A stretch of 63,738 bases of DNA, counting the filler, from Licmophora abbreviata (taxonomy: Eukaryota), in the NCBI GenBank assembly GCA_900291995.1. It is 18 parts of 18 records of this genome, joined end to end, with 100 filler letters (N's around TTAATTAATTAA, not from the genome) between each part and the next. Parts side by side here need not be neighbours in the genome. Positions count along the whole stretch, not along the records: positions 33,388 to 39,901 come from OLMU01000994.1; positions 40,002 to 41,767 come from OLMU01000996.1; positions 41,868 to 43,335 come from OLMU01000997.1; positions 43,436 to 45,490 come from OLMU01000998.1; positions 45,591 to 46,888 come from OLMU01001000.1; positions 46,989 to 49,981 come from OLMU01001001.1; positions 50,082 to 51,339 come from OLMU01001002.1; positions 51,440 to 52,792 come from OLMU01001004.1; 10 more parts are not named here. One strand, 5' to 3'. This document shows positions 36,955 to 57,172 of the stretch, one piece after another (within the stretch, counting starts at the first letter, position 1; every line of letters begins with the position of its first letter). The translations under genes and the position numbers were made by a program. The notes under the pieces were generated by a model. It was not told the DNA's origin. It made no database searches and saw only the letters and a program-made list of their open reading frames with translations.

Positions 36955-38043
36955 TCATTCGCCGTCGCAATAGGCGCGGATCGCAAGTTGCACATGGTAA
37001 AGGCTCGAGGCCGGCATCAGGCGCGAGCGCAGCGCGCCTTGCACGTCACGCTGATCGAACCAGCCGCCTGGAACATCCGTTGTCAGATAGTCCAGCCAGA
37101 TGCGCTCCATGATCGCCGAGGGGCTGTCACCGGGGCCAAGGTCATGGCCACGCCAATACACCACCATGGCCGCGCGCAGATATTCCAGTTGCGGCCACAA
37201 TCGGCGGGTGCGGGCAAGTGGCTGGCTGGTATCGGGCAGAAATCCTGAAACGAGTTTTCGGGCCCGGACCGCCCTGAACAGGCGCACGAGGCTAATCCCG
37301 GTGCACCGCCCCGTCACCTGCTCATAGCGGTGCAGCAGATACACCCATTCAGCCATATGCCCCGGCTCGACCGATTGCCGGGGCCATGGCATCGGGGAAA
37401 GATCAGCCTGATGGTATTCCAGAAGCCGGCCATCAGGCTGCAGAAAGACATCGCGCAACAGGCCAAGGCATTCATCGGCAATCGCAAGATGGCGGGGCGC
37501 GCGCGTGACCCTGTAAAGCTCGGTCGCGGCCTCAAAGAGATGCATATGCGGGTTCTGACGGCGCGGCAGGGACTGTGCCGCGTTTTCATGCCAGCCACGC
37601 GGCGCCTTCAGCCGGGCCAGTCCCGCCTCGAGCCTCGGCAGGTCATCGCTGCGCAAACGCCCATGCTGCAGCAGCGCAGATGCCGCCAGCAGCATGAACG
37701 CCAGATCGTAGAGATCATGCGGCGCGGACAGGATCCCAAGCCGATGATCGAAAAGCGCCACCAGATTGCCGTTGCCGGGATCAAAGCCGTGATCCATCGC
37801 GAAACGGAACTGGCGTTCACCCAGATCCAGCAGATCCGCGCGCCCGGCCGAGGCAAAGCAATAGGCCTGCCGCGCCTGAACCCGCAAGCGGCGGTCAATA
37901 TCGCGCAGCGGGCGTCCTGCGTGATCCAACGCCTCCCAACTGACCCCGGTTGCCGGGTCGATCGCCACACCCGACCACAGGGGATAGACTTGGGTTTCCA
38001 GCCAAAGCCGCGGATCATGGACCGTCTTGCGCAGCGCGATCAT
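36955..38043 (-). CDS. AGE-family epimerase/isomerase
   Basis: RLRVQARQAY, LYDLAF, QNPHMHLFEA, EPGHMAEW, RLWPQ, ASSLYH. Confidence 0.88.
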   Translation of the reverse strand: MIALRKTVHDPRLWLETQVYPLWSGVAIDPATGVSWEALDHAGRPLRDIDRRLRVQARQAYCFASAGRADLLDLGERQFRFAMDHGFDPGNGNLVALFDHRLGILSAPHDLYDLAFMLLAASALLQHGRLRSDDLPRLEAGLARLKAPRGWHENAAQSLPRRQNPHMHLFEAATELYRVTRAPRHLAIADECLGLLRDVFLQPDGRLLEYHQADLSPMPWPRQSVEPGHMAEWVYLLHRYEQVTGRCTGISLVRLFRAVRARKLVSGFLPDTSQPLARTRRLWPQLEYLRAAMVVYWRGHDLGPGDSPSAIMERIWLDYLTTDVPGGWFDQRDVQGALRSRLMPASSLYHVQLAIRAYCDGE

Positions 38044-38840
38044 GCCGGTTTCCCCCACCGCATACTGCGTTGCCAGCGTCGCATCCGGCGCATCATCCTG
38101 AGCATGTCGATATGGTAAAGACCGCTGCGCGCGGCCCAATCCGCCGGAGGCTGGCGCGGCGTGGCGATCACCGCCTGCCCCTTACGGATCGGAGCCAAAG
38201 GCAGAAGATCGTCAAGCCCGGTATCATCGCTCGCCCGCATCAGATCGACATCGCCCCGCTCCATCAACATTTCGAGGATCCTGCGATCGAGCAGCGGATC
38301 ATGCAGCCGCCCGTCAAGACCCCGATGCCCCAGATCCTGCCCCAGAAGCGCCCTGCAGCGCGGTCCCGGCTGATAGGGATAGCGCCGGGAGCCGCCATAC
38401 ATGTCGAAACCCGCCAGAATGATCCGCTCGAACCCCAGAGCATGCGCCATCAGAACCGCATAGGTGCCGGTCATCGGCTTGCGATCATGCTGCGCGATCA
38501 GCACCCCGAGCCGCTGCGCAAGATCGTGACTGCGAAAGCCGACCCTGCGATACAGGGACGAAAATCGTCTTTGTCCTGCGCGGGTGACCAAAGGGTTATG
38601 GCTTGTCCAACCCTGCAGATCGTAATCCACCCGGCATTGCCAAAGGGTCGCGAATACGAAAGGTGCGACCCGCGGATCGCCCGCCATGACCGCCAGATCC
38701 ACCCGTCGGCCAAGATAGTGCATCGGCTCGAAAAAGAAGTTGTTGGTGCGCAGGATCGTGTCACTGGTCAGAACGCGCCCCATATCGATGCGAGCGACGG
38801 ACGGCCCGTTTCCGGCGACCACGGCGGTCCGCCCCGTCAT
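38040..38840 (-). CDS. CST-I/CST-II-like (GT42) sialyltransferase
   Basis: VVAGNGPS...RTNNFFFE..YLG and TGTYAVLMAHALGFERIILAGFDMY parallel the Campylobacter Cst-II motifs. Confidence 0.82.
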   Translation of the reverse strand: MTGRTAVVAGNGPSVARIDMGRVLTSDTILRTNNFFFEPMHYLGRRVDLAVMAGDPRVAPFVFATLWQCRVDYDLQGWTSHNPLVTRAGQRRFSSLYRRVGFRSHDLAQRLGVLIAQHDRKPMTGTYAVLMAHALGFERIILAGFDMYGGSRRYPYQPGPRCRALLGQDLGHRGLDGRLHDPLLDRRILEMLMERGDVDLMRASDDTGLDDLLPLAPIRKGQAVIATPRQPPADWAARSGLYHIDMLRMMRRMRRWQRSMRWGKPA

Positions 38841-39901
38841 TGCCGACCCATATGCGCCAAAAGCGCGTCGGCCATCGCGCGCAAGGCGCCCGCACCACCC
38901 GGAAAGGGCAGGATCCAGTCCGCAATCGCCATGATCTCAGGGTGGCTGTCGCTGGGGCAAGCCGAGAGGCCCACCGCCTGCATCACCGCCTTGTCGTTCA
39001 CGTCATTACCGACATAGAGCACCTGTTGCCGGGTCAGCCCTTCAACGCTCAACCAGGCATCCAGAGTACCCAGCTTGTCGTCGATGCCATGCAACGCGGG
39101 AATGGTCAGCTTTTCGGCCCGCCGGGCGACGACCGGATTACGTTCTTTCGACAGGATCAACATGCGCCAATGCCCCGCATCGCGCATCATCGACAGGCCC
39201 AACCCGTCATAGCGCGAGCTGCGCACCGTTTCCTGGCCGGTCTCATCCACCTGAACCCGGTTGTCGGTATGAACCCCGTCGAAATCCATCACCACGGCGC
39301 GCAGGCCACGCAGCCTTGCGGGATCGACCCCGACACGCCCCATCTGCTGCAACATAAGCGCGCATACCTGCAGATCGCGTTCACTGTCGATCTCGATCGG
39401 GGGATGATCCACGGGGCATAGCGCAACCTTGCCGCAAAACCGTTGACCCGCCGCCTCGAACGCATCGGCCTGCACGCAATAGATCGCTCCGCTTTCGCGA
39501 AACGCCGGCTGCATATCCTGCCGGCGCTGGCGCGGATCGGCGGGGGTATGGTTCACCCCTTGCCCCCATCCATCCGCATCCTGCGACCACAAGAAGGAAT
39601 GATCCGCGATCACCGACAGGGCGCAATCGGCACCCTTGTCCTGCATGGATTTGAGACAGTCGTCGATATCGGCGCCAGTGGTGAAGGGCGATGTGCATTG
39701 CAAGAACACCAGCCGGGACAGATCGGGCATGTCCCGCCGCAGGTGCGGCAGCGCGTGCAGCCAGCCGGATTCGGAACTGGCGGTGTCACTGGCCAACGCG
39801 GCGGGCCGGTCGATGATCCGCGCCCCGTAAAGCCGCGCCTCGGTCGCGATGGCGGCATCGTCGGTCGATACATAGACGCGGCCAACCTGCCTGGCCATGC
39901 G
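38837..39901 (-). CDS. Acylneuraminate cytidylyltransferase fused to a KdsC-like HAD phosphatase, 5' end lost in gap
   Basis: VSTDD, RPAALASDTASSE, LQCTSPF, RQRRQD, ESGAIY, EIDSERD, then MDFDGVHTD, YVGNDVND, GGAGALR. Confidence 0.88.
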   Translation of the reverse strand, partial: RMARQVGRVYVSTDDAAIATEARLYGARIIDRPAALASDTASSESGWLHALPHLRRDMPDLSRLVFLQCTSPFTTGADIDDCLKSMQDKGADCALSVIADHSFLWSQDADGWGQGVNHTPADPRQRRQDMQPAFRESGAIYCVQADAFEAAGQRFCGKVALCPVDHPPIEIDSERDLQVCALMLQQMGRVGVDPARLRGLRAVVMDFDGVHTDNRVQVDETGQETVRSSRYDGLGLSMMRDAGHWRMLILSKERNPVVARRAEKLTIPALHGIDDKLGTLDAWLSVEGLTRQQVLYVGNDVNDKAVMQAVGLSACPSDSHPEIMAIADWILPFPGGAGALRAMADALLAHMGRQ

Positions 39902-40001
39902 NNNNNNNNNNNNNNNNNNNNNNNNNNNNNNNNNNNNNNNNNNNNTTAATTAATTAANNNNNNNNNNNNNNNNNNNNNNNNNNNNNNNNNNNNNNNNNNN
40001 N

Positions 40002-40338
40002 GCTGACCGCCCGGACGATGGCACAGGCCCTTTCCAATGCCAGCCTCGGGATCACCTGCACCTCCACCGCCGCGATTGATCTGGTCCGCGAGGGCGTGCC
40101 CGCGATGGTCCATCTGGACTATCCCGACACCGCGCTCGACCCACTGGTGGGACCGATGCGGCGCCTGTTCACGGGAAGCAACCTGATCAAACCTCTGGAT
40201 GATATCCTCAATCTGCGCTTCGATGCCCCGGACCCGGACTGGCTTGCGGACATTTTCTGCGCGCGGGAGCTGGGCCGCGATGTGCTGTCGATGATCGCGG
40301 GCGGCCCGGCGAAAAAGGCCGACAGGATCGGCGCCTGA
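40002..40338 (+). CDS. C-terminal fragment of a putative GT-B glycosyltransferase-like protein
   Basis: ITCTSTAAIDLVREGVP resembles the GT-B donor-binding segment; most of the gene is lost in gap. Confidence 0.45.
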
Positions 40339-40379
40339 CAGGCGCATCCGGGCAAGACCGGCAAATCATCAAGAAAAGA

Positions 40380-40405: not shown

Positions 40406-40462
40406 GATTTGGCCCCGATAGTTTCAACAAATGCGTGTAAAATTGGGACTATCGGGTGCCAC

Positions 40463-41473
40463 ATGTTTAACAATAAAAGACTTCTCATAACCGGTGGGAC
40501 CGGGTCTTTCGGACAGCAGTTCATATGCAATGTCCTCGAAAACTACACCCCTTCCGCCGTCGTGATCTATAGCCGCGATGAGTTGAAACAGTTCGAGATG
40601 CAGCAGCGTTTTCCGGGCGAAAGCCGGCTGCGCTATTTCATCGGCGATGTGCGCGATGGCCAGCGCCTGACCGATGCGATGGAGAATGTGGATCTCGTGG
40701 TTCATGCCGCCGCGCTCAAGCAGGTTCCAGCGGCCGAATACAACCCCATGGAATGCGTGCGCACCAATATCTCCGGCGCCGAAAACGTGATCCGGGCCGC
40801 CATCGCGCAGAAGGTCGACAAGGTGGTTGCCCTGTCCACCGACAAGGCCGCGAAGCCCATCAGCCTTTATGGCGCGACCAAGCTGGTTTCGGACAAGCTG
40901 TTCGTCTCGGCCAACAATACCGTCGGCACCAACCGCACCCGTTTTTCCGTGGTGCGCTATGGCAATGTGGTGGGCTCGCGCGGGTCAGTCATCCCCTTTT
41001 TCCACAACATGATCGGCAAAGGGACAAATTTCCTGCCGATCACCGACAACCGGATGACCCGTTTTTGGATCACGCTGGATCAGGGTGTGGATTTCGTCAC
41101 CAAGGCCTTCGAACGCATGTGGGGCGGCGAGATTTTCGTGCCGCGCATTCCAAGCACCCGGATCACCGATCTGGCACAGGCCATGGCCCCCGATCTCGAA
41201 AAGCGCGTCGTCGGCATTCGCCCGGGCGAAAAACTACACGAGGTCATGTGCCCCGAGGAAGACGCCCACCAGACGCTCCGCTTCGACAATTTCTTTTCGA
41301 TCACCCCCGCGATCACGTTCAACAACACCGATGTCGATTTCGCCCGCACCCGGCTGGGTGAAACCGGCAAGCGTGTGGATCCCGAGTTCGAATACAATTC
41401 CGGCAACAACCCGGTTTTCTTGAATCAAGTTGAAATAGAGACGCTTTTGGCCGCAACCGGTTTCGGACGATGA
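40463..41473 (+). CDS. pseB: UDP-N-acetylglucosamine 4,6-dehydratase (inverting)
   Basis: TGGTGSFG, SRDELKQ, HAAALKQVPAAEYNP, STDKA, RYGNVVGSRGSV, GIRPGEKLHE. Confidence 0.93.
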   Translation: MFNNKRLLITGGTGSFGQQFICNVLENYTPSAVVIYSRDELKQFEMQQRFPGESRLRYFIGDVRDGQRLTDAMENVDLVVHAAALKQVPAAEYNPMECVRTNISGAENVIRAAIAQKVDKVVALSTDKAAKPISLYGATKLVSDKLFVSANNTVGTNRTRFSVVRYGNVVGSRGSVIPFFHNMIGKGTNFLPITDNRMTRFWITLDQGVDFVTKAFERMWGGEIFVPRIPSTRITDLAQAMAPDLEKRVVGIRPGEKLHEVMCPEEDAHQTLRFDNFFSITPAITFNNTDVDFARTRLGETGKRVDPEFEYNSGNNPVFLNQVEIETLLAATGFGR

Positions 41474-42708
41474 TCCCCTATGGGCGCCAATGGATCAGCC
41501 CCGAGGATGTCGCAAGCGTGGTCGATATCCTCATCTCGGATCACCTGACCCAGGGGCCCGCAATCCCGCGCTTCGAACAAACCCTGCGCAGCGCCTGCGC
41601 GGCGCCCCATGCCGTCGCGGTCAACAGCGCCACCTCCGGGTTGCATATCGCCTGTCTCGCCCTTGGGCTTGAGACCGGCAAACGGCTCTGGACCTCGCCC
41701 AACAGTTTCGTGGCCTCGGCCAATGTCGCCCGTCTTTGTGGCGCCGAGGTTGATTTCGTGGATATCGNNNNNNNNNNNNNNNNNNNNNNNNNNNNNNNNN
41801 NNNNNNNNNNNTTAATTAATTAANNNNNNNNNNNNNNNNNNNNNNNNNNNNNNNNNNNNNNNNNNNNCAAACTGCATGTCGCCCGTCGCAAGAGCCGTCT
41901 GCCGCATATCGTGATGCCCGTGCATTTCGGAGGACAATCCTGCGACATGCCAGCGATCCACACCCTCGCGGCCGAGTTCGGTTTTCACGTGATCGAAGAC
42001 GCGTCCCACGCGATCGGCGCGCTGCATGACGGGGCACCCGTGGGCGATTGCCGCTATTCGGACGCCTGCGTGTTTTCATTCCACCCAGTCAAGATCGTTA
42101 CCACGGGCGAGGGCGGCGCCGTGACCACCCGCGACGACCGGCTTGCCGCGAAACTGGACAGGCTGCGCAGCCACGGGATCACCCGCAACCCCGCCCTGAT
42201 GACACGGGACACGGATGGCCCTTGGTATTACCAACAGCTCGATCTTGGCCTGAATTACCGCATGACCGACATGCAAGCCGCCCTTGGCACCAGTCAGATG
42301 ACGCGGCTCGAGCCGTTCATCGCTCTGCGCCACGGCCTTGCCCGGCGCTATGACAGGGCGCTGGCCGATCTGCCGCTGCGCCGCCAGCAGCGCCCTGTCG
42401 CGGATCGCTCGGCGCTGCATCTCTATCCGGTTCAGCTTGACCCGTCCCTGCCAGACCGCGCCCGCCTGCGCCGGCGCCTTTTCGACCATTTGCGCAGCCA
42501 CGGAATCGGCGTGAACGTGCATTACATCCCGATCCATACACAGCCCTATTACCGCGCGCTCGGTTTCACGCCCGGCCAATTTCCCGTGGCCGAGGCTTAT
42601 TACGACGGCGCCTTGTCGCTGCCGCTGCACCCGCAAATGTCCGATGCCGATCAATCCGCCGTGATCGAGAGCCTAAGATCCGGCCTGACATCTCTGGGCC
42701 TGATCTGA
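41470..42708 (+). CDS. pseC: UDP-4-amino-4,6-dideoxy-N-acetyl-altrosamine transaminase, split by linker
   Basis: MIPYGRQ, LTQGP, NSATSGLH, then EDASHAIG, FSFHPVK, LGLNYRMTD. Confidence 0.9.
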
Positions 42709-42806
42709 AACCGCGCCACGCAACGCCTGCGCACGGTGCACTCACCATTTGTCAGGGAATTGGACTCAGGGTCTGACGCAGCAGCAACCTGATCCGAGAG
42801 ACCAGC

Positions 42807-43880
42807 ATGTCCGACATTTCACCGCGCCTTTCCCTTCCCTTCCTGATGCCCTCGCAGGCCCAGAAACACGTCACCCACAACGAAGCGCTGGAGCGGCTTG
42901 ACGCTCTGGTCCAACTCAGCGTTCAGGCCTTCGACACTCTCCAGCCCCCCGCCTCGCCCGGCTTGGGCGAAATTCATGCGATCGGGACCGGTGCAAGTGA
43001 CGCATGGGCTGGCCGCGAAGGGCAACTGGGCCTTTTCACAGAGACCGGCTGGAGCTTCATACCCCCGCAGCAAGGCTGGCGCGCATGGGGCGTGACCGAG
43101 GGCGAATTGAGGGTCTATTCCGGTGGAATATGGCTTTCTGTCATGCCTCCCCTGCAAAATCTGGACGGTGTCGGGATCGGCACGTCATGGGACAGCACGA
43201 ACCGCCTGTCGGTCGCCTCGGGCGCCTCGCTGCTCAGCCATGCGGGCGGCGGTCACCAGCTCAAGGTCAACAAGGCCGACACCGGCGATACCGCCAGCCT
43301 CCTGTTCCAGTCCAACTGGTCGGGTCGCGCCGAAANNNNNNNNNNNNNNNNNNNNNNNNNNNNNNNNNNNNNNNNNNNNTTAATTAATTAANNNNNNNNN
43401 NNNNNNNNNNNNNNNNNNNNNNNNNNNNNNNNNNNCGAAATGGGCCTGACCGGCGACGATGATTTCCGCATCAAGGTCAGCCCCGATGGCGCCAGCTTCC
43501 ATGACGCGATGCAGGTGCGCAGCGCGGATGGCGTGGCCCTGATCCCCTGCCTGATGAGCGGCAAGGTCAGCATCACGATCGACAGCGTGGTCAGCATCCC
43601 GACACCGGGCGCGGGCGGGTTGATCGCCGTCTCGATGGTGGACACGGCTTATCCCCAGACACCCCATGCTGGCCTGTTTTCGTATGATACAGGCCCGTCG
43701 CTGTCTCTGCTGACACTGGCCAAGGGCGCCAGCCTCGAGGATCACGGCACCACGGCCCTGACCGGTACGACCGGCACCAACGGGCGCAGTTCGATTGCCG
43801 TCACGGATGGTGCAATCCTTCTGGAAAACCGCCACGGCCCCGAACGCTTCTATGCCTATACGTTCCTGAACACGTTCTGA
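42807..43880 (+). CDS. DUF2793-domain protein, split by linker
   Basis: LPFLMPSQAQKHVTHNEALERLD, WSFIPPQQGW, GHQLKVNK, SGRAE|MGLTGDDDFRIKVSPDG; both contig ends carry cgaaa, suggesting a short overlap. Confidence 0.85.
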
Positions 43881-44029
43881 CCTGCCGCCTTGCGGCTCCG
43901 GCCCACACCCTGAGGGCCGGGGCAACGCCGCGCCCTTGTCGACATCGAAACCTTACGGCGCAAACAGTGCCGATCCCGTTCCTCTCGCAGCCTTTGACAA
44001 AGACCGCAGGAGGGGCAGCAGATCGGCGG

Positions 44030-46315
44030 TCATGACGCTTTGCTTTCCGACAAGCGTGCCCGCAATCTCAGGCTGTCCAGCGCCATGAGTCGGCTGGCCT
44101 GCTCTGTGCGCAAGCGCGGGGTGATCTGCCCCGCCACCTCTTCCCGCTCCCGCCTGTGCCTCAGCGCCGCATCACCGCCGGGTTCCAGACGCTCTCCAAG
44201 GGCACGTCCCACAAGCTCTTCGATCTCCGGGATCGGCGCTGCCGCCGCCCGGTCCAGATCTTCAGCAAACCAATAGGGTGGGTACAGCACCTTGTTGGTC
44301 ACCGGACGCGCGTGAAAGCGATAGTGCTGGGTGAAATCCTCATTGGCCATGTAATCCAGCCAGACACCCGCGCGCTCGCGGATATCCAATGCCACCATCG
44401 CCGGTTTCTCGAACCGCAGATACGCCTCGTAATCGGCGCGGTCCTTGGGCACCACATGCCCGATGGGATAATCGACGGGCGCGAAATCCCCGCACAACAC
44501 CGCGGGAATGCCCATCAGCCCCAGTTCGATTGCCGTCGTTCCATTATAGATCAGCCCCAGATCCATCCGCTCTCGCATGTCGTGCATGTCGAACCAGCGA
44601 TGCCCCAGAAACAGCACGTTCTCGGACATGGGCGCATCGATCAGATCTCGGAAATACTCCGTCGGAAAGGTCGCAATCTCGTTGTTCAACTCATGCGGAT
44701 GCGGCTTTATCAGCAGCAGCGTATCAGACCCCTCTACCGCGCGAACCGAATGGTTGATCCAATCCTTCATGCTGCGATGAGCCGGCCCGCCATCATGCGG
44801 CACCCCGCTGTCACACACCACCTTGCCAAAGGCGCAGGCCAGTTTGCCGCCCCTTGCGCGCCATGCCGCGATCCTTGCATCCGCCTCTGCCGCCTCGGGC
44901 GCCCGGGTCTTGAGGCCCACGGTCGAGCGTGTGACCTTCGTGATCCCCGCGAACCTCTCCATGATCTGCGGAATGCGCGCCGTGTTCTCTGCGTAATAGG
45001 CCTCGAAATACTCGGGGATCGGAAAACTGGCCGACCGCAGCCTGGGCACTTTCGTCATGTTCCGCAGCACAAAGCGGTGCGAGATGTTGGTCGAGAAATT
45101 GCTGAAGTAATTCTGATAGCCATTCGCGGCATGCAGGAAAAAGAACGTCTCCGGATCGCCGCGCGCGGCACAATAGAACCGAAACAGCGCATCGGGCATC
45201 CGGCTGTTGAACAGCGACATGCAGGCCGTCTTGCACCCCGTGAGATCATGCTGACCCTTGGCATGCTCCAGAACCCGACCGATCGCCGCGCTCCAGCTCA
45301 TCAGCCGACCGATGTAATGCTGCAATTCCGGGCAAGCCCAGTTGATGCTGTATCGCCGCCGGTTGATCGCCGCATCCTCCCAAACGGCATGCGACAGGTC
45401 CATCTCGCCCCATCGCAGGGTGCCCGTGGACGGATCGGCCACGAAATCCGTAAGCTCCGGCATCGCCCGTTCCGCCGCCTGCGACAGCTTNNNNNNNNNN
45501 NNNNNNNNNNNNNNNNNNNNNNNNNNNNNNNNNNTTAATTAATTAANNNNNNNNNNNNNNNNNNNNNNNNNNNNNNNNNNNNNNNNNNNNGCCGCTCCTG
45601 TAGCGCTTTTTCCTTGAAGTCTCCCGCAAGTGGCGGCGCTGCCTCGCGATCCGGCGGGCATCCTGGGCTGGGGATCCTCGCTCCAATCCATCGACTCCCG
45701 CGCGATCAGGTCGACGACACGCCAGGACTGCTCCAATATCCGGCGCCGCTTTTCCATCAAAGCGGGCGGCGCAGCATTTGGCGTGTCGATCTCTTGCAAA
45801 AGACGGTGGGCCGCCTGACGATAGTCCCCCTGCATCGCCTCGCAGAGCGAAATCAGATGGCTGAGATAGGCGCTCTCCCTGAACCGTTTCCGGGCCTGTC
45901 GCGCGCTTTCAAGAAGCCTTTTTCGACCCTCTTCCGTCACAAGCTGCCGTGCGATCATCTGCCCGGCCTTGAACTGGATCGTCAGATGCGTGCGCTCCAT
46001 CTCGGCCATCACGATCAGAAGACCGGTGTAATCCCGCCTCTCGATCAACGGCACCACCAGTCGCCGCAAGCGTCTCGCCCGCAACTGCGCCGCCATCTGC
46101 TCGCGCCCCCGATGTTCCGCGGCAATGGCGCGCAGATGCATCACCCGCAAGTCATCCGGATAAAGCCGCGCCACAACGCCCAGCATACACGCCGCCGCGC
46201 CATGATGCCCGGCATCCAGACACTGCCGACCCAGTTGCAATGGCGCGGCCAACAACAGTTTTCGGACAAGACGACGGTCCCTGAGCGGCTTCACGTGGTT
46301 TTGCGGATCACTCAT
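44030..46315 (-). CDS. Large uncharacterised protein with C-terminal capsule-synthesis/GT-B-like domain, probably one gene split by linker
   Basis: 44030-45490 has LLIKPHPHE and NGTTAIELGLMGIPAV; 45591-46315 is a helical N-terminal part on the same strand, open into the gap. Confidence 0.55.
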
Positions 46316-46358
46316 CACATTTCCAGATATGGACGCGCTCGCCTCGGCCGATCGCAGG

Positions 46359-48440: not shown

Positions 48441-49576
48441 GACCACGGCCTCACATAATACCCGACAACGTCGAGCGATCCGTTCACCGCACGGATTCGC
48501 TCACCGTCACCATAACGAAACTCGTGGTATATGGCATCGTCGGGAGGTGGAAAATTACCGCTGTCAAAGATCGTGCCCGGCGGCGCCTGCTGGAACATCA
48601 GCTCCATGACGGGACGGCCCTGCCGGTCTGCTTCGGGTGCTGCTTCTATCTCGTTCGGGAGTCCAGACACGGGCGCCTCGCCGGTCAGGCATGTCACCAT
48701 CATGTCCAACAGGTCCACGCCCCGCGCCAGCGCGATCAGCCGCCACATATGGCAGCCGTCGAGCCTTGGGGCGATCTCAACGATTCGCGGCCCGTCCCGT
48801 GTCACGATCATCTGTACATAAAGCGCCCCGTCCGGATGGCCCATGACCGTCAGGATACGCCCCACCAGATCATGCGCCGCCTCCTGATCCGCCTCAGACA
48901 CGGCAACCGGCGGCACCAGATGGCCGCGCGGCACCCCCATCGCGGGCGCTTGATGCACCAGCCGCTCGGACAACACCTGCAACCGGACCTCACCACCCGC
49001 TATCAGCAGGTTGCACGACAGTTCCACGCCGTCCAGAAACGCCTCGATGATCGCACATCCACTGCGCGACAGCGCGCGGACCAGCGCCGCCGCCAAGGCG
49101 TCTGGCTCATCGACCCGCTCGACACCTCTCTGGCCCTGCGCATCCACCGGCTTCACGACACAGGGAAACTGCCTCCAGCCCTCGGCCTCCTCAAGCCTGC
49201 GCACGCGCCGGAAAGGCACAGCACCCAGCTCATGCTCGGCCAGAAACGCGCGCAGCGCCGCCTTGTCATCCAGCAAGTCGACAAAGGCGCTGTCGTGGAA
49301 ATGCGGCAAACCCAGCCTCTCGGACAAGGCCACGACCGACCGCATCGCCACATCCGAGGCCACCGACAGGATCAGATCCACCGCGTGCCGCCGCGCCACT
49401 GCCTCCAGCGCCTCCAGATCGGAGATATCGACCGGCTCCACCACATCGCAAAAGCGCTGGCCCACCTCATCGGGTACCGGCGAACAGCCGATCACGTGCC
49501 AGTGCCGCGCGCGCATATGCCGGATGAGATCGGCCTGCCCCGCATTCGTCCCCAGAACAAGGATAGACCGGCTCAT
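48437..49576 (-). CDS. ATP-grasp domain protein
   Basis: DKAALRAFL, PCVVKPVDAQGQRGV, IIEAFLDGVELS, IVEIAPRLDG. Confidence 0.88.
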   Translation of the reverse strand: MSRSILVLGTNAGQADLIRHMRARHWHVIGCSPVPDEVGQRFCDVVEPVDISDLEALEAVARRHAVDLILSVASDVAMRSVVALSERLGLPHFHDSAFVDLLDDKAALRAFLAEHELGAVPFRRVRRLEEAEGWRQFPCVVKPVDAQGQRGVERVDEPDALAAALVRALSRSGCAIIEAFLDGVELSCNLLIAGGEVRLQVLSERLVHQAPAMGVPRGHLVPPVAVSEADQEAAHDLVGRILTVMGHPDGALYVQMIVTRDGPRIVEIAPRLDGCHMWRLIALARGVDLLDMMVTCLTGEAPVSGLPNEIEAAPEADRQGRPVMELMFQQAPPGTIFDSGNFPPPDDAIYHEFRYGDGERIRAVNGSLDVVGYYVRPWS

Positions 49577-50589
49577 GCCATCGCCCTTTCCAAAAGCGCC
49601 GAAATCAGCCGCTCCACCCCTCGTCCATCCACCGCTTGCCGGCCTTTCACCGCCATCGCCTCGCGCTGACTGTCAGCCCGGATCAGAGACGAAACCGCCT
49701 CAAAAAGCGCTTCAGGCCCAACATCCGCAATCCGCCCCAGATAAGGCGCACCGGTCAGCGCCTGCCAGCCAAGGCAGGGCCGCTCCTGATTTGCGGCAAG
49801 CGCCAGCGTTACCATCGGCAGCCCACAGATCGCCGCCTCATAACTCATCGTGCCGCCGCCGATCACCGCCAGATCACAGCCCGCCATAAGCCCCGGCATA
49901 TCCTCAGGACCCACATGCAACTCCACCTGCCCGGGTCCCATCTCGGCCACCGCCCGCTCCACGGCGGCGCGTCCCGGATTGNNNNNNNNNNNNNNNNNNN
50001 NNNNNNNNNNNNNNNNNNNNNNNNNTTAATTAATTAANNNNNNNNNNNNNNNNNNNNNNNNNNNNNNNNNNNNNNNNNNNNCGCGGCGCCTTACCACCTG
50101 ACGAAACCCGCGCCGCAGCACCGCATGGGCCGGGCCGAACAGGGTCTGCACCCGCTCGGGCCTCTCCAGCCTCTGCAGATACGCGGAACGCCGCTCGAGC
50201 GGGCCGGCATTGACCAGCACATCACAGCAAAACCGCCAGTCGCAGCTGGCATCGAACTGTTGCAGCCACCGCAAACCACCCGCCTTCAGCACCTTCTGAA
50301 ATGCTGGATCGGCCCGATAATCGTCAATCACCGCATGGCGCGTGCCAAGCCGGTCGCACAGCGCCACCACCCTTGCCGCGTCGCGCGCCGATCCCTGCCG
50401 GTCTTCAACCGCCTGCCAGTGCTGGAACAGATCGCTATCCTCGGCCAGCCGCAGCCCCTCTGCGGGCCCGATCATCGCCGAGCCGATGCCCTGATCCCGC
50501 AAATGTCGCGCCATCTCGCGGCAGCGCATCACATGGCCCAGCCCCACGCCCTCACCGCTCTGGCAGCGAAAGACGACCCAGCGGCTCAT
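49573..50589 (-). CDS. pseG: UDP-sugar hydrolase PseG-like, split by linker
   Basis: GVGLGHVMRC, VIDDY, then MPGLMAGCDLAVIGGGTMSYE, ANQ, VDGRG. Confidence 0.85.
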
Positions 50590-51308
50590 GGCTTGGTCCC
50601 GGCGGGACGCAACCGCTCGAAAAGCGTCTCTGCAAAGGCCCAATCTTCGGGTGTGTCGATATCCTGCGCCCTGTCGCGCGGGATCATGCAGGGCAGCGAA
50701 CGGGGCGAAAACATCGGCGCATCCTCCATGAACGCATCGCGCCGACCCCAATAGAACATCCCGGCATCGTGAAACGCCTCCGGCAAATCCTGTGTCCGGG
50801 ACCGCGCATGCTCGGGCAAGATCATCCGCACACCGCCGGTACCCCTGAGCTGCAAGGCCCGGTGCACCGGATGCGCATACCCCACGGCGGCAAACACGAA
50901 ATCCAGCGCAGGCCGATCCGCCAGCATCTCGAACCCGCGCCTCAGATCCTCGGCGCGCAGCATCGCGGCGGTGGCATAGATGCAGCAGGCCATGGTCACC
51001 GGCCTGTCATGCCGCGCCTCGGCATCGGCAATCGCATGGGTGATGACGCCGCGCGTCGGTGTCAGATCACCGGACAAATAGGCTGGCCTTCGAAACGGCA
51101 CCAATGCACCGGCATTTTCGGCGACAGACGCAATCTCCTCATCATCGGTCGAGACGATCACCTCGTCGAACAGCCCCACCTCCAGTGCCGCGGCAATCGG
51201 CCAATGGATCATCGGGCACCCGCCGAAGGGCTTGATGTTCTTGCGCGGAATACGCTTGCTGCCGCCGCGCGCCGGAACGATCGCGATCTGCAAAAAAGCC
51301 CCTGTCAC
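50586..51308 (-). CDS. pseF: Pseudaminic acid cytidylyltransferase
   Basis: PARGGSKRIPRKNIK, VSTDD, CCIYATA, RTQDL, HDAGMFYWG, DIDTPEDW. Confidence 0.9.
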   Translation of the reverse strand: MTGAFLQIAIVPARGGSKRIPRKNIKPFGGCPMIHWPIAAALEVGLFDEVIVSTDDEEIASVAENAGALVPFRRPAYLSGDLTPTRGVITHAIADAEARHDRPVTMACCIYATAAMLRAEDLRRGFEMLADRPALDFVFAAVGYAHPVHRALQLRGTGGVRMILPEHARSRTQDLPEAFHDAGMFYWGRRDAFMEDAPMFSPRSLPCMIPRDRAQDIDTPEDWAFAETLFERLRPAGTKP

Positions 51309-51946: not shown

Positions 51947-54196
51947 TCACAGGAACTGGATGTTGTCCGCAAGATCGCCCAGACCCAGATAGAGGGTCAC
52001 CTCGATGATATCGCCACTCCCGAAATCCAGCGTCACCGTGCCATCGCCAAAGCTGGCATGACGATCCAGCACCGTCTGCGGCGTGGCCGGGCCATCCACC
52101 AGCGCCGCATCCAGCATCAGGATGTCATGCGCCGCCTCGAAATCCAGAATTGCGTCCCGGTCATCCCCCCGCCGAAAGATGAACTCATCCGCAAGGCTTC
52201 CGCCCCGCATCGTGTCGTTTCCGGGTCCTCCCTCGATCACGTCCAGCCCTTGTGACCCCTGGATCACATCATTGCCCGGCCCACCGCGAAGCGTATCGTT
52301 CCCTGTCGCCCCAAAGAGACTGTCATTGCCCGATCCGCCCTCAAGCAGATCCGATCCAAGATTACCGAAAATCGCATCATGCCCGTCACCTCCGTATAGG
52401 AAATCAAATCCGAACCCTCCCGACAGCGTGTCATCGCCTGCCTCGCCGTACAGATCGTCCTGCCCTTCGCTGCCCAGAAGACTGTCATCGCCATCCCCCC
52501 CGAACAGCGTGTCCCAACCGGTGCGCCCGATCACCGTGTCGTTGCCCGCATCTCCGTACACCACATCCACGCCGTTACCCGGACTGATCCAGTCATCCCC
52601 GTCACCGCCATAAATCAGATCGACCCCGGTATTGCCCAACAGCCGGTCATTCCCCGACCCGCCATAAAGCGTATCCGCCCCGATCCCCCCGGCCAGCGTG
52701 TCATGACCCGCCTCGCCGAACAGCAAATCGATCGAACTCAGCCCCTCCAGACTGTCATTGCCATCGCCGCCATAAAGGCTGTCGGCCCCTGTNNNNNNNN
52801 NNNNNNNNNNNNNNNNNNNNNNNNNNNNNNNNNNNNTTAATTAATTAANNNNNNNNNNNNNNNNNNNNNNNNNNNNNNNNNNNNNNNNNNNNATCCGCGC
52901 GCCATCGCTCAGCGTCTCGAGCCCGATCTGCAGCGTCGAATACAACCCCTCCCAATCCGACAGATCCACCCGGTCCTGTCCCGGCGCAAACCCCCGGATC
53001 TCGTCCGGCGCGCCATCCTGCACCAGCACGAACAGATCGGCACCCGCTCCACCAATCAGCGTATCGGCCCCGCCCCCATCCCAGATCAGCCCGCCATCAG
53101 CCCCGATGCCCAGCACATCGGCGCCCTCGGTCCCGATGACCACCTCCCGACCGGGCAGCAGCGGCGCGGAAAGCAAGCTCAGCCCCGCCTCCCGCTCCGA
53201 GCTCGCCACCACATGCAACGCACCCCCAAACACCGTCAGCGCCACCGCATTGGGGTTGTTCAGGCCCAGCGCCCGGGTGTCCGACACCGTATCAAGATGC
53301 ACCATCCGCCCATTGGGCAAGAGCTGCAGCAGGCTCAACCCGTCATCGGCGCCCCCGGCCAGCACATAAACCTGCCCCTCATGGCGGAGTGTCTGCAACA
53401 CGCTGATCCCGCCGAACCGGGTCTGGCGATCATCCAGCGTGCTCTCCACAAGGGTCAGCGCACCGCTTCCCGTAACCTCCAGCACACTGATCGCACCCGC
53501 CTCGAAACTGCCCGCCAGCAGAAAATCCCGCCCCTCCAAAGTGACCGTCTCGAGCAGGGTGGGCCGGAAAGAAACGCCCTCCTCTTCGATCCCCAGCGAG
53601 GCGCGCCGGGTCAGCCCGCCCTCGGCGGTGACCTCAAAGGCGCTGATCCCGGACTCCTGCTGCGAGGCGACAAAAACCATAGTGCGCCCCGACAAGGTCT
53701 GCACCGCAGCCAAGGCAATCGGCCCCGCAAGGTACGCCTCATCGCTGTCCGCCATCTGCGACACCTGCACGAGCCCCCCCGAAGGCTCTCGCCGCAACAC
53801 CGACAGCCCGCTGCCATCCGGCACGGCGGCGACCATATAGGCCGTGCCATTCACCGGCGTCGCCACCAGATGCACCAGATCACCGTAATGCCCACTTTGT
53901 GCGGAATAGAGACTGATCTTGTCGCCAAACTCCTGCAACCGGTCGAGCTCCTCGGTCAGCAACCGGAACTGCCGACCGGCGATCACCGACGCGACATAAG
54001 CCTCGGCGCGCATCTGTGCCGCCACAAAAGAAAACTGCCCCGTCTCGGTCAGCCGCCAGATGCCTTGGGACAGCCCCATGCCCCCCAGAACCGAAATCCC
54101 GAGATCCGCCCCAAGCGGCGAAAACACCAGGGTCGGCATGATGCCCGAATGCAGACCATCAGCACCCGGATCATGCGTCTGTTGCGTAAACTCCAT
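51947..54196 (-). CDS. Calcium-binding RTX-repeat protein with N-terminal propeller-like region, split by linker
   Basis: Many GGxGxDxLx nonamers at 51947-52792 and GGAGADLF...DRVDLS near 52960-53100; that both pieces are one gene is inferred. Confidence 0.75.
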
Positions 54197-54321: not shown

Positions 54322-54984
54322 TCACATGGGCTTTTCCATGTTCTTCACATGCCGGGCAATCGCCTCTTCGACCGTATCGTAAAAGCTCAGCTTGCCATCC
54401 TCGAGGATCGCACCCGCGGTGCACAGGTTGCGCACTTCGGCCAGCGAATGGGTCACCACGATCGCGCTGCTTTGCTGCAACCGGGCCTTGAACACCTCGG
54501 CGCTTCTGGCGCGAAACGCCCGGTCGCCCACCGATGTCACCTCATCCACCAGATAGGTGTCGAAACGAATGCCCATCGAAATGCCAAAGGCCAAGCGCGA
54601 CCGCATCCCCGACGAATAGCTGCGCACCGGCATTCGGAAATGCCCGCCCAACCCCGAAAACTCCGCGACGAAAGCGATCAACTCGTCGGTATCCACGCCA
54701 TAGACACGCGCGATGAACCGGCAATTCTGCGCGCCCGTCAGATCGCGGTGGAACGTGCCGGTGAACCCCACCGGAAACGAGACACTGCCCCGTCTGACGA
54801 TCCGCCCCTCGTCATGGCGCATATTGCCGGAAATCATCCGTAACAGGGTCGATTTTCCCGCCCCGTTGCGCCCCATCAACGCCACCGCCTGCCCGGCAGG
54901 AAACAGCGCGTTGATCCCTCGCGCCACGTATTTGCGGCCCCTCGATGTCGGAAAGCTCTTGGTCAGATTTCGCAGCTCGATCAT
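54322..54984 (-). CDS. kpsT: Capsular polysaccharide ABC exporter ATP-binding protein
   Basis: GRNGAGKST, YSSGMRSRLAFG, YLVDEVTSVGD. Confidence 0.93.
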   Translation of the reverse strand: MIELRNLTKSFPTSRGRKYVARGINALFPAGQAVALMGRNGAGKSTLLRMISGNMRHDEGRIVRRGSVSFPVGFTGTFHRDLTGAQNCRFIARVYGVDTDELIAFVAEFSGLGGHFRMPVRSYSSGMRSRLAFGISMGIRFDTYLVDEVTSVGDRAFRARSAEVFKARLQQSSAIVVTHSLAEVRNLCTAGAILEDGKLSFYDTVEEAIARHVKNMEKPM

Positions 54985-54996
54985 CGCGCCACCGGC

Positions 54997-55364
54997 TCAC
55001 CTGCGATCCCGCAGAGAATAATAGATCAGCACCAGAATGCTCCATCCCACGCTCAGAAACAGCACCNNNNNNNNNNNNNNNNNNNNNNNNNNNNNNNNNN
55101 NNNNNNNNNNTTAATTAATTAANNNNNNNNNNNNNNNNNNNNNNNNNNNNNNNNNNNNNNNNNNNNAGAGGCATATTGATCCGCCGCGCGTTCCCACAGA
55201 TACCAGCCCGCCACCAGCGCCGGCAGCAGGATCAACAGCTGCGCCGAGATCATCAGGAAAAGATGCCGTTTGCGTGGCCTCACCCGCCGCATGGCCCTGC
55301 CCGAGACCGGCGGCTTTTGCGGGTCTTTGCGGGTCTCTTCACCTTTCGATTGTTCATCGGTCAC
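54997..55364 (-). CDS. KpsE-like capsule export inner-membrane protein, middle lost in gap
   Basis: N-terminal TM LPALVAGWYLWERAADQYAS and C-terminal WSILVLIYYSLRDRR flank the linker; directly upstream of kpsT. Confidence 0.75.
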
Positions 55365-55428
55365 AGGTATGATCCAATCGACACAACTTTAACGAGTTTA
55401 GAGTTTCACGATTCTCGCAGGAATACCA

Positions 55429-56238
55429 GTGTCGATCAGCCGGCCCAATCTTCGCACACCGCAGCGGCCCGCCCGCCGTTTTCGCATGGCCCGCGTGATC
55501 CTCGCCCTCGTGCTGCGCGAGATGTCGACCACCTATGGCCGCTCTCCCGGTGGGTATGTCTGGGCCATTCTGCAACCTGTCGGGCTTATCCTGATCCTCG
55601 CGATCGGGTTTTCGCTGCTGCTGCGGGCGCCCTCGCTCGGTACGTCGTTCCTTTTGTTCTACGCCTCCGCCCTTCTGCCGCTGCGCATGTTTCAGGACAT
55701 GTCCGTCAATGTCGGCGCCGCCATCAGCTTCAACCGCGCCCTGATGGAATATCCCCGCGTCACCGTGATGGACGCGGTTCTGGCCCGTGCGCTGCTGGTT
55801 GTGCTCACGCAAGCCGTGGTCTCCGCCTTGATCTTCACCGGCATCTTCCTCGCCGATGACATCCGCGAAACCATCGATCCCGCTCCCATCGTGACGGCCT
55901 TCGCGCTGGCCGCGTTTCTCGGCTTCGGGTTCGGGATGTTCAACTGCTATGCGATGATGGCCTTTCCGGTCTGGAAAACCCTCTGGACCGTGCTGACCCG
56001 TCCCCTGATCCTGATCTCCGGCGTGTTTTTCCTGTACGAGGACCTCCCCCGCGGTCTTCAGGACATGCTGTGGTTCAACCCGCTTCTGCATATCGCCGGC
56101 ATCGCGCGGGAGGGGGTCTATGCCATTTACCAACCCGGCTACATTTCCATCCCCCTGATCGCGGGCATGGCCATGGCCCCGATGTTCCTTGGCGCGCTTC
56201 TGCTGTTCCGCTTCGGGCGCAGCCTGATCTACAAATGA
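55429..56238 (+). CDS. kpsM: Capsular polysaccharide ABC exporter permease
   Basis: ALVLREMSTTYGRSPGGYVWA, YPRV, SGVFF, FNPLLH. Confidence 0.9.
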   Translation: MSISRPNLRTPQRPARRFRMARVILALVLREMSTTYGRSPGGYVWAILQPVGLILILAIGFSLLLRAPSLGTSFLLFYASALLPLRMFQDMSVNVGAAISFNRALMEYPRVTVMDAVLARALLVVLTQAVVSALIFTGIFLADDIRETIDPAPIVTAFALAAFLGFGFGMFNCYAMMAFPVWKTLWTVLTRPLILISGVFFLYEDLPRGLQDMLWFNPLLHIAGIAREGVYAIYQPGYISIPLIAGMAMAPMFLGALLLFRFGRSLIYK

Positions 56239-56251
56239 GCCCACCTGCGGA

Positions 56252-57172
56252 TCATGACGCCTTGGCATGCCGTGCGCGCAGCCATTTCAGCTTGTCGCGC
56301 TGCACCTGTTCGACCGGCAGGATCTCTTCGGGCTTCATGGCCAGTGTCTGATCCACCTCGCGAATGTCCCGGCACAACCGCCCAAGCCCATCCGGCTCGA
56401 GGCTCGCGGCGTGATCGGTGCCCTTCCAGCTCCGGTCAAGGGTGAAATGCCGCTCGATATGGCTGAACCGGCCCCAGCCTTCGGCCTCCATCATCCGGCC
56501 CACCGCCAAGGCCGCGACATCCGTGCCGATCCCCAGGTGATGCCCGGAAAACCCGATGCTGTTCACCCGTGTTCCATAGCGTTCCATCAGGTTGCGGATC
56601 TCGAACAGGCACACATCCGCGAAGGCCACCGGATACCCCGAGGTGCAGCTGTAGATCACCAGATCCTTTGCCCGTCCCCGATCCTCGTAGAAGGCCACGA
56701 GATCAGCGATCTCGCGCCCCGTCGACATGCCGGTCGAGACATGGATCTCACCCTCGAAATGCCGGCACAGATAGTCCTGCAAATCGAAATGCTGATTGGT
56801 CGCCGAGGGGATTTTCAGCATCATGGGCCCAAGCGCCGCCATCTCCCGCGCCGAGGTCAGATCCCACACGCTGGTCGAATAGGCGATGCCATGCGCCTTG
56901 CACGTCTCGATCAGCTCACGATGTTGATCGACATCGAATTCCAGAAACTCCCGATGCGCCCCATAGGTCGGCCCATAGGCATTCTGGGGCACCGGATGCG
57001 GCGTCGCATATTCAAGCGGAGTCAGCAATTCACGATTGCAGCGTTTCTGAAACTTGGCGACATCGGCGCCGCACTCCTCGGCGGCGACGCGAATCAACTC
57101 TTTGGCGAGGTTCAGATCACCTTTGTGATTGCATCCGATTTCGGCGATCACCTGAACTGGCTGTCTTTTCAT
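56252..57172 (-). CDS. NeuB-family nonulosonate synthase, short form without SAF domain
   Basis: IAEIGCNHKGD, KFQK, LKIPSA, STGMS, CTSGYP, GFSGH, ERHFTLDR, GTDHAASLEP; ends at about 306 aa. Confidence 0.88.
   Translation of the reverse strand: MKRQPVQVIAEIGCNHKGDLNLAKELIRVAAEECGADVAKFQKRCNRELLTPLEYATPHPVPQNAYGPTYGAHREFLEFDVDQHRELIETCKAHGIAYSTSVWDLTSAREMAALGPMMLKIPSATNQHFDLQDYLCRHFEGEIHVSTGMSTGREIADLVAFYEDRGRAKDLVIYSCTSGYPVAFADVCLFEIRNLMERYGTRVNSIGFSGHHLGIGTDVAALAVGRMMEAEGWGRFSHIERHFTLDRSWKGTDHAASLEPDGLGRLCRDIREVDQTLAMKPEEILPVEQVQRDKLKWLRARHAKAS

Follow-up and report, generated by a model that had tools for sequence, protein, structure and literature searches.

A Roseobacter Capsule Locus Predicted to Encode a Phosphorylated Route to a CMP-Activated Nine-Carbon Ulosonic Acid, Most Likely Kdn

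The route leading from mannose-6-phosphate (Man-6-P) through Kdn-9-P, the 9-phosphate of 2-keto-3-deoxynonulosonic acid, and free Kdn to its cytidine monophosphate ester, CMP-Kdn, has been established in Bacteroides thetaiotaomicron and Prymnesium parvum, according to the accessible text of PMC6200933. In B. thetaiotaomicron, BT1714 (GenBank AAO76821) is given as the Kdn-9-P synthase and BT1713 as the Kdn-9-P phosphatase (as described in the available portions of PMC6200933 and PMC10483923). Kdn polymers are an established component of bacterial cell surfaces, and cluster SCO4873-4882 of Streptomyces coelicolor is described as one for a Kdn teichulosonic acid (accessible parts of PMC13011467 and PMC11481543). 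Database annotation cannot separate Kdn synthases from those of N-acetylneuraminic acid (Neu5Ac), as the available text of PMC10483923 points out. Here we analyze a 63,738-base stretch of DNA (the window) deposited under Licmophora abbreviata (GCA_900291995.1). It contains a roseobacter capsule locus encoding a short NeuB-family synthase and a CMP-nonulosonate synthetase fused to a KdsC-like phosphatase of the haloacid dehalogenase (HAD) superfamily. We propose that this locus specifies a phosphorylated-route pathway to a CMP-activated nine-carbon ulosonic acid, probably, and most likely among the candidates, Kdn. A phosphorylated-route ulosonic acid module is predicted with greater assurance than the identity of its product. 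The proposal agrees with the core of an earlier note on this DNA, which had suggested a phosphorylated Kdn-type route whose CMP-activated product is transferred to a Kps-exported glycan; gene linkage, phyletic pattern, HAD motifs, natural fusions and the kps flanks all point in this direction.

The genes central to the proposal are the following:

36955..38043, minus strand: epimerase/isomerase of the N-acylglucosamine 2-epimerase (AGE) superfamily, 362 residues, last gene of the operon (PF07221, 127.5 bits against 23.4)
38040..38840, minus strand: putative nonulosonate transferase resembling glycosyltransferase family 42 (GT42; Cst-I/Cst-II type), 266 residues (PF06002 CST-I, 40 bits against 25)
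38837..39901, minus strand: CMP-nonulosonate synthetase fused to a KdsC-like C0 HAD phosphatase; about 48 N-terminal residues lost at a contig end
56252..57172, minus strand: short NeuB-family synthase without a SAF domain, 306 residues, predicted Kdn-9-P synthase (PF03102, 191.5 bits)

The first three form the overlapping operon seen by the earlier note: each has its Pfam or NCBIfam match, and both the AGE/GT42-like and the GT42-like/fusion boundaries are 4-bp ATGA start/stop overlaps, the ATG start of the AGE gene overlapping the stop of the GT42-like gene. In the pathway we propose, the short synthase would condense phosphoenolpyruvate (PEP) with Man-6-P to give Kdn-9-P, the C-terminal HAD domain of the fusion would remove the phosphate, and its N-terminal cytidylyltransferase domain would form CMP-Kdn. 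The GT42-like enzyme, probably together with the neighboring DUF6716 and family 2 (GT2) glycosyltransferases, would add the sugar to a polysaccharide, which the adjacent KpsM/KpsT/KpsE system would then export. The AGE-fold enzyme would probably make or balance the manno-configured precursor. Gene content, domain integrity, conserved linkage, a common phyletic pattern and natural gene fusions are what we observed. We infer from them all substrates and products, and what the acceptor glycan is.

Like B. thetaiotaomicron, the locus combines a NeuB-family synthase, a KdsC-type C0 HAD phosphatase and a cytidylyltransferase. A further tie is provided by orthologous modules of Bacteroidales, whose HAD domains, as well as those of Flavobacteriales and Lachnospiraceae, score 165-178 bits on NF058599, the NCBIfam model based on BT1713 (cut-off 180), against 112-137 bits for KdsC. 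Unlike in B. thetaiotaomicron, the phosphatase here is fused to the cytidylyltransferase, and the roseobacter HAD domain reaches ~83 bits on that model, equal to its KdsC score. The proposed chemistry is the same as in P. parvum, where the synthase is strictly specific for Man-6-P; the algal enzymes differ in being eukaryotic, and no phosphatase homolog was found there according to the accessible text (PMC6200933). As in the group 2 (kps) loci of Escherichia coli, KpsM/T/E-like genes stand beside sugar-nucleotide genes, with KpsC/KpsS-like genes (PF05159) on another contig of the nearest genome used for comparison (G001; 3.9 Mb, 30 contigs, 99% complete). The gene order differs both from E. 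coli kps loci and from the S. coelicolor Kdn cluster, and we regard the similarity to SCO4873-4882 as a lead only. The vertebrate NANS/NANP/CMAS route likewise proceeds through phosphorylated intermediates, and CMAS presumably carries a KdsC-like domain at its C-terminus. However, NANS has a SAF (antifreeze-like) domain and also uses N-acetylmannosamine-6-phosphate, and the C-terminal domain of CMAS is reported to be inactive, whereas the fusion in the window keeps all catalytic residues. The type of pathway is known; its occurrence in a roseobacter capsule locus is undescribed as far as our searches reach. In the library covered, a full-text literature search brought up two papers, both off the subject by their titles; it gave no description of Kdn in roseobacters and, as the earlier note had supposed, none of this route for the lineage.

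The short synthase covers the whole TIM barrel of PF03102 (threshold 22.1 bits, profile positions 2-236 of 241), and a SAF domain (PF08666) was not matched in it. A second, short NeuB-like protein besides a separate pseI, as recorded in the earlier note, is present. The protein misses the NeuB/NnaB equivalog TIGR03569 (169.2 against 399.65 bits, the match stopping at profile position 273 of 329) and the PseI equivalog TIGR03586 (121.6 against 340.25 bits). It has the PF03102 barrel in common with canonical NeuB, PseI and LegI, along with the metal and PEP motifs in the alignment to PseI 8h2c. It differs from the canonical synthases in having no SAF domain, in scoring below both equivalog cut-offs, in the lack of a NeuC and in the presence of a true PseI encoded separately. 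Solved NeuB, PseI and SpsE chains match it with just 46-62 bits (3g8r, 29 bits). In the ESM Atlas, its matches were solely clusters named 'N-acetylneuraminate synthase family protein', and the Bacteroides sp. cluster P0232 is 85% identical to a Bacteroidales short NeuB. The SAF domain contributes substrate-binding residues, including R314, in NeuB enzymes that use N-acetylmannosamine (ManNAc), and SAF-less NeuBs of environmental bacteria have been noted with their function unassigned (available parts of PMC8208679). A role of the short NeuB as a spare PseI was considered and rejected because it pairs with the fusion in loci without any pse genes.

The association of the synthase with the fusion extends far beyond roseobacters. 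Taking one genome per species, we scanned for short-NeuB relatives and located 512 coding places; the best 80 of the 512 were taken as loci, with roughly 10 kb of DNA examined for each. They are 55-78% identical to the G001 short NeuB (55-62% for non-alphaproteobacterial members) and come from Alphaproteobacteria, Bacteroidota, Firmicutes (Lachnospiraceae, Paenibacillus), Beta/Gammaproteobacteria (Nitrosomonadaceae, Burkholderiales), Verrucomicrobiota, Kofleriaceae, Saccharibacteria and others. Of the 80 loci, 68 contain a fusion homolog, and in 59 it is a full-length two-domain protein. In 43 (38 of 55 non-alphaproteobacterial and 5 of 25 alphaproteobacterial), the full-length fusion lies on the same strand and at most 100 bp from the short NeuB. 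The pairing of the short NeuB with the CMP-synthetase/HAD fusion is conserved between phyla.

Within the taxonomic family of G001, we sampled 121 genomes, one per genus, with cut-offs of E<=1e-60 for the short NeuB, E<=1e-30 for the fusion and E<=1e-10 for the GT42-like gene. Each of the three was found in the same two genomes, G001 and G047. Relatives of the AGE gene occur in seven genomes, at an identity of at least 50% just in these two; the five others have paralogs that are 32-39% identical. In G047 the genes form a compact divergent cluster, with AGE, GT42-like and fusion genes on one strand and DUF6716 and short NeuB on the other. The short NeuB/fusion module is an accessory, patchily distributed trait; the possibility that the short-NeuB family is a roseobacter housekeeping gene was rejected on the basis of its occurrence in two of the 121 genomes. 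Genes 79-81% identical are present in cultured Ruegeria pomeroyi, Phaeobacter gallaeciensis and Marinovum.

The substrate of the synthase is suggested by natural gene fusions. Searching a library of 1.84 billion proteins with the short NeuB gave 231 clusters at E<=1e-30. The best-scoring representative, P0243, has a NeuB part 57% identical to the window protein and, at its N-terminus, a Man-6-P isomerase cupin domain (PF01050) that shares 41-44% identity with the phosphomannose isomerase (PMI) domains encoded in G001 and in a Lentibacter locus. The same PF01050 plus PF03102 architecture was found in 48 of the best 120 90%-identity clusters found with P0243. Records of PMI-NeuB fusions carry the names Thalassospira, Flagellimonas, Hyphomicrobiales and Rhodospirillaceae and lie on contigs of up to 3.9 Mb. 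The joining of a PMI cupin to NeuB points to Man-6-P as the substrate and, therefore, to Kdn-9-P as the likely product. HAD partners were found as well, in NeuB-HAD (P0244), in KdsC-like HAD-NeuB (P0277) and in a protein joining a DxDGV-motif domain to NeuB (P0246), and cytidylyltransferase-NeuB fusions are represented by P0273, P0296 and P0302. Phosphatase and CMP activation are thus tied to the synthase independently of gene order. In a FastTree (LG+gamma) tree of 142 NeuB domains, a single clade with a support of 1.0 unites the window protein with the 80 loci and the PMI fusions. This clade excludes PseI and the SAF-bearing NeuBs, and two PMI fusions nest among unfused members.

Other NeuB-family fusion proteins were also encountered (P0139, P0140, P0227, P0392, P0351, P0343), with a hexapeptide-repeat acyltransferase, a methyltransferase, a GT29-like sialyltransferase and an Ldh_2 dehydrogenase as partners. 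The fusions to the GT29-like sialyltransferase and the Ldh_2 dehydrogenase carry SAF and fall outside the short family.

The CMP-synthetase/HAD fusion of the window matches the PseF profile with 55.5 bits, starting at position 42, and shares 96% identity with residues 49-402 of the G001 ortholog, a protein of 402 residues. The latter has a complete PF02348 (CTP_transf_3) domain (56.9 against 22.6 bits), while the window copy, lacking the N-terminal ~48 residues, falls under the PF02348 threshold. The G001 protein misses the PseF equivalog (95.9 against 205.7 bits). Relatives of the fusion in the PDB are the Neisseria meningitidis CMP-Neu5Ac synthetase (103 bits) and the HAD entry 3mmz (126 bits), which we take to be a Streptomyces protein. 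The HAD domain also matches 3ewi (61.9 bits), presumably the C-terminal part of the CMP-sialic acid synthetase from mouse. The HAD domain of the window copy lies below all KdsC-type cut-offs (TIGR01670, 79.4 against 106.95; NF007019 KdsC, 83.2 against 208; NF058599, 82.7 against 180).

The HAD motifs DFDGV, S299, K324 and GNDVND are present in both the G001 and the window copies. Across 58 aligned fusions, D254 and D256 (the DxD nucleophile and acid), the Ser/Thr of motif II, K324 of motif III and D348 of motif IV are invariant. The second Asp of motif IV (position 351) is Asp in 50 of the 58, and the cytidylyltransferase motifs (P-loop R/K, Q-x-T-S-P) are kept in 55-58. By these motifs the HAD domain appears catalytically competent. 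The best HAD model is NF058599, that of the B. thetaiotaomicron KDN-9-P phosphatase, in 15 of 24 fusions scanned. R202, an Arg invariant in all 58 fusions, aligns to F192 of the meningococcal CMP-Neu5Ac synthetase, a residue that presumably forms part of the pocket wall around the methyl of the N-acetyl group. We consider this alignment a hint only in favor of Kdn over Neu5Ac.

How the window was assembled affects the interpretation of the locus. Its 18 contigs make up a pseudomolecule, with 17 identical 100-base linkers (N44-TTAATTAATTAA-N44) between one contig and the next, as follows:

5349, 14147, 19618, 25868, 33288, 39902, 41768, 43336, 45491: linker junctions
46889, 49982, 51340, 52793, 55067, 57687, 60793, 62585: linker junctions, the rest
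39902..40001, no strand: assembly junction N44-TTAATTAATTAA-N44, non-genomic, standing for 1209 bp in G001

Wherever a gene seems to be cut short at one of these places, or two genes seem to be neighbors across it, this is an artefact of the assembly. The earlier note overlooked the junctions, ten of which lie between the three-gene operon and the short NeuB in the span 36955-57172, and also a fifth conserved gene, for the DUF6716 glycosyltransferase. The window contigs of 33388-62584 are collinear on a single G001 contig at 95-97% identity, with the exception of contig 57787-60792, which matches G001 partially, in four pieces of 83-92% identity. The contig order of the window is thus credible. 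Relative to G001, the window lacks about 4.8 kb of the locus (1209, 40, 938, 21, 133, 1203, 292, 927 and 45 bp at successive junctions), and the content of the gaps was read from G001, where the whole region lies on one contig. What the earlier note had called the 39902 gap is the linker junction at which the cytidylyltransferase N-terminus is cut by a contig end. A neuC, which the note thought might lie there, is not found in it: the corresponding G001 DNA holds most of the DUF6716 putative glycosyltransferase gene and the N-terminus of the fusion. The interpretation of pseC, pseI and pseG as pseudogenes was rejected, since their breaks are assembly junctions and all are intact in G001.

The supply of the sugar substrate was examined in G001 and in the other loci. 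PF02350 (the NeuC/WecB family), PF04131 (NanE) and type I PMI have no match in the whole G001 genome, which encodes one type II PMI/GDP-mannose pyrophosphorylase (PMI/GMP), one AGE-fold protein, two NeuB-family proteins (pseI and the short one) and three PF02348 proteins. The statement of the earlier note that no neuC is visible thus cannot be judged from the gapped window and gains its footing from the lack of PF02350 in G001. Among the 28 commonest neighbor clusters scanned from the non-alphaproteobacterial loci, no sugar-supply gene was found; these clusters were GT52/polysialyltransferase-like, GT2 and GT4 transferases, transporters and housekeeping genes. The absence of recurrent sugar-supply neighbors would fit a substrate drawn from central metabolism. 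The Lentibacter locus has a ManC/PMI gene beside its DUF6716 gene. This gene aside, the other roseobacter loci contain between their conserved flanks just glycosyl-, sulfo- and methyltransferases and tetratricopeptide-repeat proteins.

In the AGE-fold enzyme, R52, H168, H229, E232 and H350 are invariant in all eight orthologs, and we take a conserved Arg, three His and a Glu to be the active site of the AGE superfamily. The enzyme is therefore very probably an active C2 epimerase or aldose-ketose isomerase with a manno-configured product. A single-sequence search of the PDB returned a cellobiose 2-epimerase alone, at 20 bits. With a profile of the eight orthologs, cellobiose 2-epimerases ranked best (up to 96 bits), followed by structural-genomics 'AGE' entries, by 5x32, named N-acylglucosamine 2-epimerase and presumably a mannose isomerase, and by the sulfoquinovose isomerase YihS. 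The N-acyl-D-glucosamine 2-epimerase equivalog NF052547 is missed by far (19.5 bits against 600). In the DNA examined, the AGE gene is absent from all 55 non-alphaproteobacterial and from 19 of 25 alphaproteobacterial loci, which places it outside the core module.

It is conceivable, although we consider it unlikely, that the AGE-fold enzyme converts glucose-6-phosphate or fructose-6-phosphate to Man-6-P and so acts as a non-homologous stand-in for the PMI cupin domain. The retained catalytic residues, the phyletic pattern of the module and the distance from characterized members (20 bits) are compatible with such a role, and a precedent exists in YihS, an AGE-superfamily enzyme acting on a C6-sulfonated sugar. 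We know of no experimental AGE-fold Man-6-P isomerase; the listing of this activity as established in the earlier note therefore rests on database names. If the proposal is true, the enzyme would be the first AGE-superfamily member to act on a sugar phosphate.

The transferases and the export system surround these genes:

40018..40338, plus strand: C-terminal fragment of a DUF6716 putative glycosyltransferase (PF20471, 39.9 bits), divergent from the operon
54322..54984, minus strand: KpsT-like ABC exporter ATPase (PF00005; best NCBIfam models are the polysaccharide exporters TagH, Wzt and VexC)
54997..55364, minus strand: kpsE, two end fragments astride the junction 55067-55166, recognized by G001 collinearity; ~927 bp missing
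55429..56238, plus strand: KpsM-like ABC-2 permease (PF01061, 44.4 bits against 26.9)
57210..57686, plus strand: GT2 glycosyltransferase (PF00535, 110 bits), divergent from the short NeuB and cut by the junction at 57687
57800..58897, plus strand: class I S-adenosylmethionine-dependent methyltransferase (PF08241 and related families)

The PF06002 match of the GT42-like protein spans N-terminal residues 5-51. Campylobacter jejuni Cst-I and Cst-II in the PDB are matched with E ~1e-9, the Cst-I alignment covering residues 6-159 (E 8e-10). Like these CAZy GT42 enzymes, the protein keeps AGNGPS, R-x-N-x-F-F-x-E, a G-x-D-x-Y...Y segment and the His aligned to that of the 'GHS' motif of Cst-II, which is invariant in all eight orthologs. 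It differs from them in its low overall similarity (~41 bits) and in a Pfam match of 47 residues. The full DUF6716 gene of G001 encodes 368 residues on the plus strand (PF20471, 124.7 bits). The fusion has such a gene as its neighbor in 13 of the 25 alphaproteobacterial loci and in 2 of the 55 others, and the DUF6716 proteins are candidate second transferases. The GT2 gene is kept beside the short NeuB in 13 of the 25 alphaproteobacterial loci, and the methyltransferase beside GT2 in 8 roseobacter loci. The methyltransferase domain occupies the C-terminal third of its reading frame; thus, the true start is probably later. In the window, the short NeuB is flanked by kpsT, kpsE and kpsM, an arrangement shared by 14-16 of the 25 alphaproteobacterial loci, and the full G001 kpsE product scores 218 bits on TIGR01010 (BexC/CtrB/KpsE), below the cut-off of 437.5. 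A Kps-exported capsule is most likely the destination of the sugar.

Several observations weigh against Kdn as the product or against individual steps of the proposed pathway. In the tree, the roseobacter sequences make up a sister group of the clade with the PMI fusions and do not fall within it, so their specificity could differ. The relation of the short NeuB, as a presumed ortholog, to a proven Kdn-9-P synthase is indirect. The roseobacter HAD domains show no preference between models (82.7-83.9 bits for Kdn-9-P phosphatase, 83.2-85.4 for KdsC), and the KdsC model scores best in 9 of the 24 fusions scanned. The best solved relatives of the cytidylyltransferase domain are CMP-Neu5Ac synthetases, and no matched entry is named a CMP-Kdn synthetase. 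No fusion was found within the ~10 kb examined in 12 of the 80 loci; the window has its short NeuB ~17 kb away from its fusion, so that failure to find one within 10 kb is no proof that it is absent. The lack of neuC and nanE holds for G001, a relative of the window organism and a different assembly. The supply of Man-6-P or mannose is a candidate role of the AGE-fold enzyme, and G001 also encodes a classical type II PMI/GMP. The activity for which the AGE superfamily is named, the conversion of N-acetylglucosamine (GlcNAc) to ManNAc, would suit Neu5Ac.

An alternative is an animal-like Neu5Ac route, which we judge improbable. Here the AGE-fold enzyme would convert GlcNAc to ManNAc, a kinase would phosphorylate it, the short NeuB would form Neu5Ac-9-phosphate, and after dephosphorylation by the HAD domain CMP-Neu5Ac would pass to the GT42-like enzyme. 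PF07221 bears the name of GlcNAc 2-epimerase, the solved relatives of the cytidylyltransferase domain have been mentioned, the GT42 relatives Cst-I and Cst-II use CMP-Neu5Ac, and the match of the HAD domain to 3ewi, presumably from the mouse enzyme, is in line with such a route. However, the locus has no ManNAc kinase and G001 neither NanE nor NeuC; the natural fusion partner of the short-NeuB family is a Man-6-P isomerase domain and no amino-sugar enzyme; and the AGE gene, far below its equivalog, stands outside the core module. The missing SAF domain, with R314 among the substrate-binding residues it provides to ManNAc-using NeuB (accessible text of PMC8208679), argues in the same direction. 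The separate roseobacter branch of the NeuB tree, the HAD domain equidistant from the KdsC and Kdn-9-P phosphatase models, and the conservation in roseobacter loci of a methyltransferase and a divergent AGE-fold C2 epimerase/isomerase could reflect a different 2-keto-3-deoxy ulosonic acid, made from another hexose-6-phosphate or by further modification of a Kdn-like sugar. We find this quite unlikely: an identity of 55-62% to non-alphaproteobacterial members usually means the same reaction, and the known AGE-superfamily reactions, all of which to our knowledge yield gluco, manno or fructo configurations, point to a manno substrate.

It could also be argued that the HAD domain is merely a structural, oligomerizing module and that the synthase takes a free sugar that bears no phosphate, as the canonical NeuB routes of bacteria do. 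The C-terminal domain of vertebrate CMP-sialic acid synthetase, to which 3ewi is assigned, is a reported tetramerization module in which no phosphatase activity was detected. This explanation nevertheless seems very improbable to us, as the catalytic HAD residues are invariant in all 58 fusions, independent HAD-NeuB fusions exist, and the characterized relative from B. thetaiotaomicron, a stand-alone protein, is active as a Kdn-9-P phosphatase (accessible text of PMC6200933). The phosphorylated route to Kdn is, on the whole, the reading that we prefer.

The complete region, as arranged in G001, is as follows:

1, minus strand: mtgA
2-4, all minus strand: AGE-fold enzyme, GT42-like transferase, CMP-synthetase/HAD fusion
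5, plus strand: DUF6716 glycosyltransferase
6, plus strand: pseB, pseC
7, plus strand: DUF2793
8, minus strand: 1059-residue protein
9, minus strand: pseI, short-chain dehydrogenase/reductase (SDR), ATP-grasp, pseG, pseF
10, minus strand: sulfotransferase, GT2
11, minus strand: RTX-repeat protein
12, minus strand: kpsT, kpsE
13, plus strand: kpsM
14, minus strand: short NeuB
15, plus strand: GT2, methyltransferase

Two minus-strand open reading frames were rejected as shadow frames: 39946-40347, opposite to a DUF6716 match, and 55354-56268, which is without a match and lies opposite to ABC2_membrane. The pseudaminic acid (Pse) gene set pseB, pseC, pseI, pseG and pseF occupies window positions 40409-51308 without a pseH-like acetyltransferase. 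Between pseI and pseG lie an ATP-grasp ligase (48437-49576) and an SDR (47493-48446), a trio also found in G047. The ATP-grasp and SDR genes in place of pseH suggest an unusually N-acylated Pse derivative. Adjoining pseI is the gene for the 1059-residue protein (window 44030-46372, in pieces; G001 L004:14511-17690, minus strand), which has no Pfam match and only weakly resembles the glycosyltransferase domain of the BFO_1060 family (E 4e-4 to 5e-3); it may be a Pse transferase or polymerase. The DUF2793 gene between pseC and this gene is found at window 42807-43391 and G001 L004:13393-14361, on the plus strand in both, and its G001 product has 322 residues.

An 813-residue RTX-repeat protein adjoins kpsT (window 51947-54196, in two contig pieces; G001 L005:6327-8768, minus strand). 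Its N-terminal ~350 residues have no family match, and homologs of ~850 residues occur at the same position in nine alphaproteobacterial loci. About 12 kb upstream of the operon are dTDP-rhamnose genes, rmlC at 22956-23627 and rmlD at 24637-25509, the region also taking in ~25968 onward. In the roseobacter loci L008, L010, L011 and L014, the flanks AGE/GT42/fusion/DUF6716 and GT2/short NeuB/kpsMET are conserved and the middle is variable, consisting of glycosyl-, sulfo- and methyltransferases; the Pse genes take this place in the window and in G001. The arrangement is reminiscent of E. coli kps loci, in which some regions are conserved and others specific to the serotype.

Kdn has been widely detected in environmental bacteria. 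The SAF-less NeuB beside the cytidylyltransferase/HAD fusion, together with the recurrent PMI, HAD and cytidylyltransferase fusions, would provide a genomic signature for a bacterial Kdn-type module. By the present analysis, this predicted module belongs to Kps capsule loci that are patchily distributed among roseobacters. These bacteria are abundant in association with marine algae, and their surface glycans affect attachment, recognition by phages and gene-transfer agents, and carbon flux.

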